Shown here one piece after another: positions 3,529 to 33,700 of a stretch of DNA of 61,237 nt. This stretch comes from Patescibacteria group bacterium. Its GTDB lineage: Bacteria > Patescibacteriota > Minisyncoccia > UBA6257 > 2-01-FULL-56-20. Position numbers and translations under genes: made by a program. The stretch spans positions 1-61,237 of the forward strand of contig JBBTUL010000001.1 of the NCBI GenBank assembly GCA_038063755.1, in the 5' to 3' direction. The first letter of the stretch is position 1; each line of letters opens with the position of its first letter. The notes beneath the pieces were generated by a model. That model did not search any database and was not told the origin of the DNA. It saw only the letters and a list, made by a program, of their open reading frames with translations.

Positions 3529-4509
3529 CTATTTTAAGATGCGCGCGAGTTCTTCGGGAGGAACGACATTAATATCAACGCCGGTACCTAGCTCAAATCC
3601 TCCCTCTTGGGCCATCTTCGGAATCACTTCAACGTGCCAGTGGTAATGCGAATGGCTTTTTTGATTTTTAAGGGGGGCTGTGTGGATGAAAAAATTATAG
3701 TCTGGGTCGTTTAAGTTCTTCTCGATTTTCTTCAATACTCGCTGAAGCAGTTCAGCAACCGCGCGAAGCGGTTTCTCGTCAGTCTCCTCAAAAAAAGCGT
3801 AGTGCTTCTTTGGGAAAATACGTATCTTGTATGGATGTCTTGAGGCAAACGGCGCGAACGCAATCGCGTCCTTGTTCTCTGCGATGATACTTTTTCCTCC
3901 CTTCCTTTCGTGCTTGATAATATCGCAATGCGCGCATCTTCGCTTCTTGGTGAAATATTCATGAGATCCCCTTAGCGAATGCGAAACCTCGGGCGGTACG
4001 ATCGGAAGCGCGAGTAGTTGGTAGTGCGGATGGTAGAGAGACGCGCCGGCGCTTGCTCCCCAATTGGAGAACGCCGAAACATAAGTAAGGCACTTGTCTT
4101 TTTTTATACCGCGATAACGCTCCTGGAAAATAAGGAATATTCGCAAAGCCTCGCTAAGCGAAAGTCTTGAAAAATTATTTTCGTGATCTCGCGTGACCAC
4201 GAGATCGTGATATCCGATACCCGGCATGGTTTCGTAGGGACCAAGATTTATGGACTTTACGCAAACATTGCTGTGTCGAAGTGCCGGATATTTATTCGGA
4301 ATAAGCACCACGCGCCAGCTTTCTCTGTTCGGATAAGCAATGATTGGCGGCCAATTTCCCGTCTTTTCGAGGTCCTCAAACGGGCACGTTTTTTTCGGCG
4401 TTGGCCTTCGCCTGCTTTTTCCGTCAGAAAATCCGTGAGGGCGTCCTGCCCTCTCTGGCGCAACAACGATCCAATCTCCCGAAACCGGATCCTTTCGAAA
4501 CTCTGCCAT
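3529..4509 (-). CDS. galT: Galactose-1-phosphate uridylyltransferase (HIT superfamily)
   Basis: EFRKDPVSGDW, CPFE, PNKYP and the catalytic GASLYHPHYQ (HxHxQ) motif. Start placed at the second Met. Confidence 0.92.
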   Translation of the reverse strand: MAEFRKDPVSGDWIVVAPERAGRPHGFSDGKSRRRPTPKKTCPFEDLEKTGNWPPIIAYPNRESWRVVLIPNKYPALRHSNVCVKSINLGPYETMPGIGYHDLVVTRDHENNFSRLSLSEALRIFLIFQERYRGIKKDKCLTYVSAFSNWGASAGASLYHPHYQLLALPIVPPEVSHSLRGSHEYFTKKRRCAHCDIIKHERKGGKSIIAENKDAIAFAPFASRHPYKIRIFPKKHYAFFEETDEKPLRAVAELLQRVLKKIEKNLNDPDYNFFIHTAPLKNQKSHSHYHWHVEVIPKMAQEGGFELGTGVDINVVPPEELARILK

Positions 4510-32283: not shown

Positions 32284-32829
32284 ATGACAGACACTGGCCC
32301 AGAAAAAAGTATTGGATCATCGGAAGGAAAGGAAGAAGCGGCCGAGATACCTGAGCTCGACAAATACGCCGCCCTCATCACGGCGGACGATGTTTTGTGG
32401 GAAATGACCAAATCCGCAAAGAGTGGGTGGAGTAATATTTCGAAAGAACAGCAGAAGGAACTATTGAGCCACTTTGAAGCCATTATTGACAGTAGCCACC
32501 ACTATTATTCTGTTTACCAACAACTAAACAAGATGGTTTCTTCTCCGCACGATAAGTACTCAGAAGGAACCGCCGACGGAAAGAAGGAGTTAATCGGACG
32601 GTTAGACTCCGGTCGCCGTGCGGCACATAATGCCGTTATAGATTCGCTTAATATTATGTCGAGACGAATGAAGGAATTTGGTCTCAACAACTCTTGGCGA
32701 GGCGATGACCGTATTTATACTCCCGATAGCTCAAGCGATGGATCGGGAGAGGGAACGAGGAAAAAGATTGCGCAGTGGGTTTTCCACCTACACGATATTG
32801 AGGTTGGGTTGGAAAGAGAAGCGGAGTAA
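32284..32829 (+). CDS. Hypothetical protein, possibly DUF3232-like
   Basis: RRAAHNAVIDSLNIMSR motif recalled from that family; not searched. Confidence 0.7.
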   Translation: MTDTGPEKSIGSSEGKEEAAEIPELDKYAALITADDVLWEMTKSAKSGWSNISKEQQKELLSHFEAIIDSSHHYYSVYQQLNKMVSSPHDKYSEGTADGKKELIGRLDSGRRAAHNAVIDSLNIMSRRMKEFGLNNSWRGDDRIYTPDSSSDGSGEGTRKKIAQWVFHLHDIEVGLEREAE

Positions 32830-32835
32830 GCATCT

Positions 32836-32909
32836 CGGGCCGTAGTATACCGGTAGTACGAGCGCATGGGGTGCGTTTAGACCGGGTTCGATTCCCGGCG
32901 GCCCGACCA
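32836..32909 (+). tRNA. tRNA-Pro(GGG)
   Basis: CGGGCCG/CGGCCCG acceptor, AGCGC-atGGGgt-GCGTT arm, GGTTCGATTCC, encoded CCA. Confidence 0.95.
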
Positions 32910-32950
32910 TATATCACAAGACCACCCACGCGGTGGTTTTGTGATATATA
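32910..32950 (+). terminator. Long hairpin immediately after tRNA-Pro
   Basis: TATATCACAAGACCACC / GGTGGTTTTGTGATATA, 17-bp stem with one G-U. Confidence 0.7.
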
Positions 32951-33392
32951 TCTCGCTGGGAATCGAACAAGCGGAAGGGGTCGGGGAACCGCGACCGGTT
33001 CCCCGTGTCGGAGGTTATTCGGAACCGAGGGTTTCGAAAAGCGATTCTGAGTTTTCCGAAGAATCGCGGGTGAGATAGCGAAGCGTCCCGGCGGCCCGAC
33101 ATTAGAAGTTGGATTATCGAGCAAAGCGAGATTAACAACTCTTATGTCCCGACTCCGGTCGGGACTAGAGAAAGTCTTCGAGCAAAGCGAGTTAGAGTTT
33201 CTTGTGTCCCGTCTGAGCGAAGCGACAGCGGGACAGTAGAATCTTCGAGCGAAGCGTCCCGGCGGCCCGACATTAGACTGTGTTGAGCGGAGCGCTTACA
33301 GAATCTTATGCCCCGTCGGCAGGCGGGGCGGTAGCGATCTTAGTGAGCAAAGCGAGCTTTAGAATTTCTTATGCCCCGACAGACGTCGGGGC
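32951..33392. repeat. Cluster of tRNA-derived and REP-like palindromic repeats
   Basis: 30-bp exact direct repeat (33077-33106, 33248-33277), six GAGC(A/G)(A/G)AGCG motifs, four TCTT(A/G)TG(T/C)CCC-hairpin units. Confidence 0.85.
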
Positions 33393-33700
33393 TTTCAAGA
33401 GTCCTCTATCTCCACAATAGCCCATAGGGCGAAGGCGGGACGGCTCCAGTTTTCTAAACCAGAGAAAGAATAAAAAGAAACAAAAAACCCGACGCTGGGT
33501 CGGGGTCTTTGTCCTCTCGTCTGAGATGATCCCGGCCAAGTGCCAGGTGGGTGGGCTCGTCTTCTGCCCCAAGGGGCGGAAGAAATTTGCCCTCCCTGAT
33601 CAGATTATTTGATCCGGAATCTCAAGAACGAGATTACCTAAAGTATACCATGTGCAAGAAAAAATGAGGATAAAATCAAAAAACAAGATATAATGAATAC

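Follow-up and report, generated by a model that had tools for sequence, protein, structure and literature searches.

A multi-copy, gene-less module with tRNA-matched arms behind tRNA genes of Patescibacteria

The tRNA-linked repeats (TLRs) of Escherichia coli are reportedly on record since 1978, the literature named for them being Egan and Landy (1978) and Rudd (1999). Here we analyze an element of comparable layout at positions 32951-33100 of a 61,237-nt stretch of the genome of a Patescibacteria group bacterium (hereafter the window, contig C1), which lies just 3' of a tRNA-Pro(GGG) gene and is one copy of a multi-copy, gene-less family of Patescibacteria. This module consists of a constant core set between a left arm complementary to the 3' end of the adjacent tRNA gene and a right arm that repeats that end. 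In E. coli, ten loci with a total of 22 TLRs have been described; the final 18-19 bp of every TLR repeat the upstream tRNA or 5S gene, all TLRs lie between dual terminators, and RrA/B/F bind Hfq and CsrA, TLR function being otherwise unknown in print (Stenum et al. 2021, PMC8144298). The TLRs include the rtT/RttR RNA of the tyrT operon (Rfam RF00391) and rrA/rrB/rrF behind the 5S rRNA. Characteristic of them is co-transcription with the upstream gene through its terminator, followed by processing to a discrete RNA.

Like the E. coli TLRs, the module of these bacteria of the candidate phyla radiation (CPR) contains no gene, lies just 3' of a tRNA in the same orientation, and copies at its 3' end the end of the upstream gene (15 nt here, compared with 18-19 nt). 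Moreover, the modules of relatives sit between two terminator-like hairpins, as do the repeats of the E. coli rrn operons. The tyrT repeat also has a 10-nt left arm, GGGGAAGGAT, complementary to the right-arm sequence ATCCTTCCCC, and the segment GCGAAGCG...CTGAGTA just 5' of its right arm is comparable to GAGCGAAGCGACGTGAGAT of the CPR copies; the tyrT unit is present in about three tandem repeats, and tandem arrays of 163-bp units occur likewise in the relative G255. In contrast to the TLRs, the CPR core is larger, with the helices P2-P4 described below, and occurs beside many different tRNA species within a genome. Homology to E. coli rtT was considered and rejected, the covariance model of the module (R1) and a scan for the shared motif having given local motif resemblance only. 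R1 reached at most 11.8 bits on the tyrT units and covered one small hairpin, no global sequence or structure homology to RtT being detected, the junction motif of tyrT was found only at tyrT in E. coli K-12, and Rfam, RtT included, gave no hit at E<=1 on the three module copies of the genome of the window. Because R1 misses the tyrT repeats and the motif is confined to tyrT, the CPR family is not a demonstrated TLR homologue. The E. coli TLRs are its closest published counterpart, and we group the CPR family with them as a variant.

Distribution of the core and match of the arms to the tRNA

The genome of the window (868 kb, 17 contigs, 98% complete) was compared with a panel of 60 relatives (G-numbers). 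When the tRNA and the element were used together in BLAST searches, matches to the core (window ~32958-33044) were found in at least 19 of the 60 relatives, several per genome and with 76-96% identity, a count that covers core hits and leaves aside hits to the tRNA alone. The covariance model R1 matched three copies in the genome of the window, located behind tRNA-Pro(GGG), behind tRNA-His (C5) and behind an unannotated tRNA-like gene (C15) that is matched by the arms of its module copy, and it had matches in 29 of 301 genomes sampled across the phylum, which belong to more than 20 families and contain 1-7 copies each. The overall range of module copy number was 0-13 per genome. The C15 tRNA-like gene (~3964-4047, + strand) was not called by ARAGORN. 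It shows an acceptor GCGGGGG/CCCCCGC, a normal T-arm, a CAU anticodon-like loop and an odd D-arm, scores 38 bits with the Rfam tRNA-Sec model (threshold 47), and is followed by a long hairpin and then by the third module copy.

An exact 31-nt pattern taken from the core was present on 47 GTDB contigs. Nearly all of those whose titles name a taxon are CPR (Paceibacteria/Parcubacteria, Liptonbacteria, Kaiserbacteria, Jorgensenbacteria, Saccharibacteria), and the remaining titles are one Candidatus Angelobacter and several that read merely 'bacterium'. R1 had 59 hits on these contigs, of which 36 follow a same-strand tRNA at a distance of 18-135 nt (median 45), together covering 20 anticodon classes, and about a third of the model hits have no tRNA just upstream. 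In the relatives, the core was located behind a same-strand tRNA in 15 of 16 fetched loci, with tRNAs for Ala, Arg (four kinds), Cys, Gly, Glu, Lys, Leu, Gln, Met and Asp as hosts. The module is always co-directional with the tRNA, and the set of module-bearing tRNAs differs between genera.

The alignment of the loci revealed a fixed order, i.e. the tRNA, a locus-specific terminator-like palindrome, the left arm, the constant core, the motif GTGAGAT and the right arm. In each aligned locus the left arm is the complement of the T-loop and the 3' strand of the T-stem of the adjacent tRNA, and the right arm repeats the 3' strand of the T-stem, the 3' strand of the acceptor and the discriminator of that tRNA. 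Arm lengths were measured on 37 copies whose contig also carries the cognate tRNA upstream of the module. The median was 15 nt for the direct repeat (tRNA positions ~59-74; maximum 24 nt) and 13 nt for the inverted repeat (positions 53-66), and 36 of the 37 inverted repeats measured 11 nt or more. Five copies keep an intact inverted repeat together with a tRNA-matched direct repeat of just 4-8 nt, in G050_Gly the sequence match to the tRNA is better for the left arm than for the right, and the arms of the tRNA-His copy match each other over 10-11 bp and do not match the acceptor of the present tRNA.

The preliminary description of this locus had proposed a non-autonomous tRNA-anchored mobile element or a structured RNA, and had suggested asking whether the core stays constant while the ends match whichever tRNA is adjacent. 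The answer was positive in 15 of the 16 loci of relatives and for 36 of the 59 model hits on GTDB contigs, and these data, a constant core with ends re-matched for each tRNA, support the proposal.

When Rfam 15 was searched, the module reached no gathering score in the window or in the other copies, where only the tRNA passed, and the relatives' copies in the scanned loci had no non-tRNA hit at E<=1. Three other ideas were rejected. A permuted tmRNA (transfer-messenger RNA) scored 17 bits with tmRNA_permuted (threshold 47), and a normal tmRNA is encoded at C12:80630-80983; a tRNA pseudogene on the minus strand was ruled out by the absence of T-stem pairing; and the presence of CCA in the copies, considered as a mark of an RNA intermediate, followed an inconsistent pattern.

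The tRNA-Pro(GGG) locus and its trailer

In the genome of the window, two paralogous genes, tRNA-Pro(TGG) (C5) and tRNA-Pro(CGG) (split between C15 and C14), run directly into the trailer ATTAGAAGTTGG. The segment 33086-33205 of the window is colinear with the tRNA 3' end and trailer of both paralogues, with ~92% identity over the first 120 nt, so that the right arm of the module is followed, from 33101 on, by the same tRNA-Pro trailer, whereas the true end of tRNA-Pro(GGG) is followed by CCA and unrelated sequence. Since the shared trailer stands after the right arm and not after tRNA-Pro(GGG) itself, the gene has gained, relative to its paralogues, a 193-bp block formed by the hairpin and the module. 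The locus thus carries a 193-bp insertion at the 3' end of tRNA-Pro(GGG), flanked by a 15-nt duplication of the tRNA end, and in the downstream copy, the right arm, the ancestral join to the tRNA-Pro trailer is preserved. The features of the locus are the following.

32836-32909, + strand: tRNA-Pro(GGG) with encoded CCA (ARAGORN; Rfam tRNA, 50.7 bits)
32909-32949, + strand: long hairpin with 18-nt arms, a 5-nt loop and a U-rich 3' side (repeat search)
32949-33093, + strand: whole module as matched by covariance model R1 (121.6 bits, E 1.4e-32)
32954-32968, + strand: left arm CGCTGGGAATCGAAC, antisense of tRNA positions ~53-67, which pairs with GTTCGATTCCCGGCG (32886-32900) at 14/15 positions (93%)
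32982-33005, + strand: hairpin P2, CGGGGAACCG/CGGTTCCCCG (repeat search; compensatory changes in 5/7 pairs)
33018-33038, + strand: hairpin P3, TTCGGAACC-GAG-GGTTTCGAA (compensatory changes in 4/9 pairs)
33041-33067, + strand: variable hairpin P4, GCGATTCT/AGAATCGC (sequence inspection and alignment)
33070-33085, + strand: 3' junction GTGAGAT, then the insert AGCGAAGCG (alignment)
33086-33100, + strand: right arm TCCCGGCGGCCCGAC, an exact sense copy, 15 nt identical to 32893-32907
33101-33395, + strand: array of trailer units of ~60 nt (sequence comparison within the genome)
33248-33277, + strand: exact 30-nt repeat of 33077-33106, made of AGCGAAGCG, the 15-nt tRNA end and ATTAGA

The tRNA-Pro(GGG) gene is the host gene and the template for both arms of the module, which starts on the + strand 40 nt past the tRNA. 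The left arm covers the T-loop, the 3' strand of the T-stem and the first acceptor bases, and constitutes the 5' strand of the closing stem P1. The right arm corresponds to the 3' strands of the T-stem and acceptor plus the discriminator and C of tRNA-Pro, and provides the 3' strand of P1 and a single-stranded tail, after which comes the ancestral tRNA-Pro trailer. A conserved junction, AGCGGAAGGGGU, lies directly 5' of P2, P3 contains one G.U pair that is possible on the + strand only, P4 varies in length and sequence from copy to copy so that no two are alike, and the AGCGAAGCG insert is specific for a subfamily, being also present in G029 and L087. The hairpin at 32909-32949, which sits between tRNA-Pro and the module, belongs to the inserted block, and in relatives the locus-specific terminator-like palindrome stands at the same position of the alignment. 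This hairpin was not called by a simple terminator scan, and in the window scan no strong + strand terminator was called from tRNA-Pro up to 33488.

All coordinates given in the preliminary description of this region were confirmed, and what it had observed lies far beyond chance. The inverted copy of the T-arm, given there as 13/14, is real and extends to 14/15 (32954-32968 versus 32886-32900), and the direct copy of the tRNA 3' end at 33086-33100 is exact (TCCCGGCGGCCCGAC, also at 32893-32907). A third exact copy of TCCCGGCGGCCCGAC, which that description lacked, lies at 33257-33271 inside the trailer array; three matches contrast with 0.01 expected and were reached by none of 100 shuffles. 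Both hairpins described earlier, GGGGAACC/GGTTCCCC (32983-33004) and GCGATTCT/AGAATCGC (33041-33067), are there, and two more were added, at 33018-33038 and 32909-32949. The claim that the element has no open reading frame (ORF) stands in part, as mechanical ORFs of 45-146 aa do overlap the stretch but none has a Pfam match; conservation at 32951-33100 follows the paired helices and not codons.

The trailer units are not part of the module, and they mark the junction that existed before the insertion. The exact 30-nt repeat shared by 33077-33106 and 33248-33277 indicates that this junction was copied once more within the trailer array. The two copies of the repeat are 171 nt apart and are followed by different sequences; unequal exchange at the motif GAGCGAAGCG and a second, decayed insertion are both possible origins.

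The units themselves constitute a second tRNA-linked family, of ~60 nt, that starts with (A)TTAGA right after the discriminator. Each unit has two covarying arms (e.g. AGAAGTTG/CAACTCTT or AGGCTTTTC/GAAAGCCT) around a small GC hairpin, often GAGCAAAGCGAG, with tandem G.A, followed by CTTATG and a CCCCG...CGGGG hairpin that lacks a U-run. They were observed behind at least nine tRNAs of the genome of the window, i.e. the two tRNA-Pro paralogues and at least seven others, in addition to the array of the window; the sites are window 33101-33395, C5:43366, C14:64, C2:58634 (-), C5:61442, C5:36979 (-), C8:40137, C8:41150, C11:60849 (-) and C13:~60. At C5:60283-60437 (-), a tRNA-Ile(TAT) gene is followed after ~70 nt by a copy of its last ~25 nt and then by a trailer unit; ARAGORN calls two tmRNAs in this region, which are probably spurious given the normal tmRNA on C12. 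In addition, the ~90 nt downstream of tRNA-Ser(TGA) (C2:23018, -) and of tRNA-Ser(CGA) (C2:29098, +) are nearly identical and include AGATTCGAACC, which resembles an inverted T-arm, and the sequence downstream of tRNA-Leu(TAA) on C12 starts similarly (TTCGACAGGCTCAG...); this stretch may be another type of tRNA-linked element.

As to the neighbouring sequences, a 181-aa DUF3232-like protein (26.8 bits, just below the cut-off) is encoded directly 5' of tRNA-Pro at 32284-32829 (+), and the locus is syntenic on that side with that of the relative G004, which also has a DUF3232-like gene before tRNA-Pro(GGG). On the other side, a bidirectional terminator (33488-33504) adjoins a weak match to 6S RNA at 33502-33650 (-; 22.5 bits, gathering score 46.4, E 0.066), which is possibly a divergent 6S RNA or a chance match.

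Predicted fold of the module

A MAFFT alignment of 16 copies analyzed with RNAalifold yielded three helices, P1 (formed by the arms), P2 and P3. In this alignment 94% of the cells are paired, and both partners have changed in 13 of the 28 pairs. These values were not reached in any of 500 shuffles, and controls in which the partner was slid had at most 61% of cells paired. For P1, 87% of the cells are paired. The 15 G.U cells outnumber the 6 A.C cells, which favours the tRNA strand. The energy of single-sequence folding was unexceptional when compared with shuffles (z -0.96 on the + strand and -1.40 on the - strand), and therefore the evidence for structure is comparative. According to this model, the module is predicted to fold on the tRNA strand into a multi-helix junction, with P1 as the closing stem and the 3' strand of the acceptor as a tail.

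Within P1, the constant CGAAC of the left arm stands opposite the GTGAG of GTGAGAT on the right-arm side and pairs with it through tandem G.A/A.G, which fall exactly at T-loop positions 55-56; P1 is thus a copy of the duplex 53-67 of the tRNA gene that carries a two-base mismatch. The unpaired junctions, which include three GGA motifs and tandem G.A motifs, are conserved across the phylum. A model in which the module is a T-loop intron, with the left arm as a direct copy of the 5' strand of the T-stem, was rejected on T-stems that contain G.U pairs. In two copies of this kind, G014_Gly and G051_Asp, the bases of the left arm are Watson-Crick complementary to the 3' strand and do not reproduce the 5' strand; hence the module is not a T-loop intron.

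Spread, candidate enzymes and competing explanations

The two clear copies in the genome of the window have 59% of their core positions alike, and the core of the window copy is 86% identical to copies of six other genera that lie beside other tRNAs. In the relative G003, two copies have 100% identical cores and wholly different arms. On a tree made from the core only, the tRNA label is not clustered (28 changes, with a shuffled mean of 29.9), and copies of one genome located at different tRNAs pair together. There is no module behind tRNA-Pro(GGG) in G008, G022 and G025, whose gene is 99-100% identical, or in G020 (93%). The patchy distribution (29/301 genomes, more than 20 families) was taken as a sign of spread over vertical descent. 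These patterns, together with the tandem arrays of G255, fit spread of the module.

Some copies do not directly follow their tRNA. In L078, the DNA between tRNA-Gln and the module includes the C-terminal remnant of a serine recombinase, which abuts the tRNA; in L076, tRNA-Ser and the module are separated by two genes, one for MarR and one of the glyoxalase family. G003 contains an orphan copy with tRNA-Asn arms, the tRNA-Asn gene being located 24.3 kb upstream on the same strand. The interval (C2:7800-32200) includes two large serine recombinases, one of which converges on the tRNA end, a DNA methylase, a type III restriction-type helicase and a 1600-aa AAA-type NTPase, and we read these 24 kb as a defence island; the separated module retains its own upstream hairpin. 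Of 10 serine-recombinase loci in relatives, 7 have the gene directly at a tRNA 3' end (the serine-recombinase loci at tRNAs are L105, L106, L109-L111, L113 and L114, and C2 of G003), and the recombinases are 500-600 aa long, converge on the tRNA genes (Asn, Arg, Ile, Leu, Ser) and slightly overlap them. In six relatives such islands have no module and no direct repeat of at least 11 nt within ~15 kb. Because recombinase islands thus occur without module or direct repeat, the gaps of 0.4-24 kb observed in L078, L076 and G003 are read as islands that landed between the tRNA and a pre-existing module, and the idea that the module is the far end of an island or cassette was rejected as a general rule. 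These islands also back an earlier remark, that the inverted end is unlike a simple integrase att duplication, which holds as well in view of a genome devoid of a dedicated integrase.

Six enzyme families were searched in 61 genomes (that of the window and the 60 relatives). TnpB (PF07282) was over the cut-off in 0/61 genomes, with 8/14 control genomes positive and IscB not included in the search; IS110 (PF01548) was found in 3/61, being absent from the genome of the window and from G003; Y1 transposases in 15/61 and large serine recombinases in 30/61 (up to 7 each) were likewise not found in the genome of the window; and reverse transcriptases were detected in 28-29/61 (28 over the Pfam cut-off), mostly one or two per genome, with none in that of the window. 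The reverse-transcriptase ORFs of the relatives are ~330-420 aa long. A tyrosine recombinase was present exactly once in nearly every genome, and that of the window is XerA-like. Since neither the module nor, as tested, the genome encodes a catalyst, a housekeeping function or an enzyme acting in trans would be required.

With these data in hand, we tentatively favour the module being a non-autonomous selfish or near-neutral insertion, which would spread at the DNA level to tRNA 3' ends and whose transcription would depend on that of the tRNA unit, in which it travels as a passenger. Recombination or homology would involve the duplicated tRNA end, and the geometry of P1, a folded copy of the target duplex with a 2-nt mismatch at T-loop positions 55-56, recalls the attP of CTX phage and the attC of integrons. 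CTX-phage attP(+) mimics dif, and sites of this type are recombined by IntI or XerCD. As in those sites, inverted segments ~100 nt apart fold into a target-like stem with a central mismatch, a likeness of form only; also as in folded single-stranded DNA sites, the structure is more conserved than the arm sequence, and only a housekeeping Xer-type recombinase is available. In contrast to attC and CTX attP, the 'loop' formed by the core is itself conserved and structured, the target imitated varies from copy to copy, and the window holds no cassette ORF. Candidates for the catalyst are the single Xer-type recombinase, homologous recombination after DNA uptake, anchored in the near-invariant tRNA gene and in the right arm, and an enzyme provided in trans.

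Several points weigh against this proposal. No candidate enzyme of the six families tracks the module in the 61 genomes, and genomes free of the module also carry the Xer-type recombinase. The identical cores within one genome could be explained by gene conversion instead of recent movement. No empty and filled alleles, circles or strain polymorphism were found; the same structure was present in contigs of four groundwater runs, where DNA contigs break at the repeats and show no alternative joint, in other assemblies of the population, and in all of the near-identical strains found through the upstream protein. The predicted empty site was absent in exact-pattern scans of JGI (Joint Genome Institute) metagenomes and GTDB genomes. 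Moreover, a circle with the end of one tRNA cannot enter a different tRNA without breaking it, and therefore the rewriting of both arms stays unexplained, a difficulty that holds under every model. Finally, the conserved unpaired junctions and the tolerated G.U pairs look more like a functional RNA than a bare recombination site.

This last point leads to an alternative that we consider rather unlikely, although less so than those discussed further below, namely that the module is a host-serving non-coding RNA of the 3' external spacer, produced by read-through of the tRNA and then released, whose copies are not mobile. P1 and the tRNA-like tail would then borrow the processing and protection of tRNA 3' ends, and the junctions would be the binding site of a protein, comparable to Hfq and CsrA in the case of RrA/B/F. 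Gene conversion would keep the cores uniform and, together with compensatory changes, would keep the arms in step with the tRNA. The strong covariation, the phylum-wide conservation of unpaired positions and the constant orientation with the tRNA agree with such an RNA, as do the location of the relatives' modules between two terminator-like hairpins, like those of the E. coli rrn operons, and the lack of a strong called + strand terminator between tRNA-Pro and 33488. The tRNA-His copy, whose arms pair with each other and not with the tRNA acceptor, fits selection for P1 pairing. However, the module is patchy and non-essential, with 0-13 copies per genome, and because the set of module-bearing tRNAs differs by genus, copies must be gained at new tRNAs somehow; the G050_Gly copy, in which the left arm is the best match, and the five copies with a direct repeat of 4-8 nt are unexpected under selection for P1. 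A search for RNA runs with this sequence found none. A direct repeat of the tRNA 3' end that begins in the T-loop region, as present here, is the classic footprint of an integrase, and the module could accordingly be imagined as what is left of a phage or island that had integrated in the classical way, by its tyrosine or serine recombinase, and whose attL/attR interval was then deleted to ~190 bp. Such att scars and cis-mobilizable elements (CIMEs) also reside at tRNA 3' ends and leave the tRNA intact, relatives do have recombinase islands at these ends, and accessory DNA of 0.4-24 kb intervenes between some modules and their tRNA. We regard this origin as the most improbable of those considered, because the same 110-nt core behind at least 20 tRNA species, with re-matched arms, is beyond one integrase. 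Also unlike att scars and CIMEs, the element contains an inverted copy of the target, measures only ~190 bp and has no integrase nearby, and the genome has a single Xer-type tyrosine recombinase, as does nearly every genome searched; the serine-recombinase islands of six relatives lack the module and any direct repeat of at least 11 nt, the separated cases are better read as later islands (the G003 hairpin and the L078 remnant), and the core was not found in IMG/VR viral contigs.

A guide RNA similar to the omega-RNA of TnpB, the bridge RNA of IS110 or TIGR (tandem interspersed guide RNA) systems is very improbable too. In such a system the constant core would serve as scaffold, with the 15-20-nt 3' tail acting as guide to the tRNA gene and the T-loop GTTCGA being the motif next to the target; the role of the left arm would be to read the opposite strand or to keep the guide masked. 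As in the omega-RNA of IS200/IS605 and the bridge or seek RNA of IS110/IS1111, a structured scaffold is combined with short segments that match the DNA of the insertion site. The right arm lies 3' of the core and the matching target is preceded by the T-loop GTTCGA, and ~130 nt of scaffold with a ~16-nt 3' segment identical to neighbouring DNA past a T-rich conserved motif would resemble an omega-RNA in layout; the arms complement both strands of the target, and the tandem G.A motifs suggest a protein partner. Nevertheless, the partner proteins are absent (TnpB in 0/61 genomes, and IS110 in 3/61 and Y1 in 15/61, the latter two not in the genome of the window; the Tas/Nop-domain proteins of TIGR systems were not searched), and a guided nuclease would cut the intact tRNA gene next to it. 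In addition, the guides differ in every copy, whereas those of omega- and bridge RNAs are fixed per element, and we know of no adaptation machinery. Somewhat less improbable, but still well short of probable, is a protein-less self-templating mobile element that would reach any tRNA 3' end through the universal T-loop, its core being copied and its arms remade from the target. Staggered nicks in the T-loop and at the tRNA end would give rise to the direct repeat, and snap-back synthesis primed by the constant CGAAC of the core, the complement of the T-loop GTTCG, to the inverted repeat; alternatively, a folded single-stranded intermediate could be processed by a housekeeping recombinase. The E. 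coli TLRs would then be decayed members of the same ancient class.

In practical terms, the family confuses the annotation of tRNAs, tmRNAs and att sites, and it breaks metagenome assemblies at tRNA loci. The CPR family shows the TLR architecture more clearly, with a covariation-backed fold, tailored arms, many copies and a clean paralogous empty site, and this makes the old question of the TLRs, known since 1978 and still unexplained, testable. If the RNA reading is true, the module would represent a new and abundant class of non-coding RNA that hijacks tRNA processing in bacteria with minimal genomes; if the DNA reading is true, it would represent target-copying insertion beside conserved genes without an encoded enzyme.

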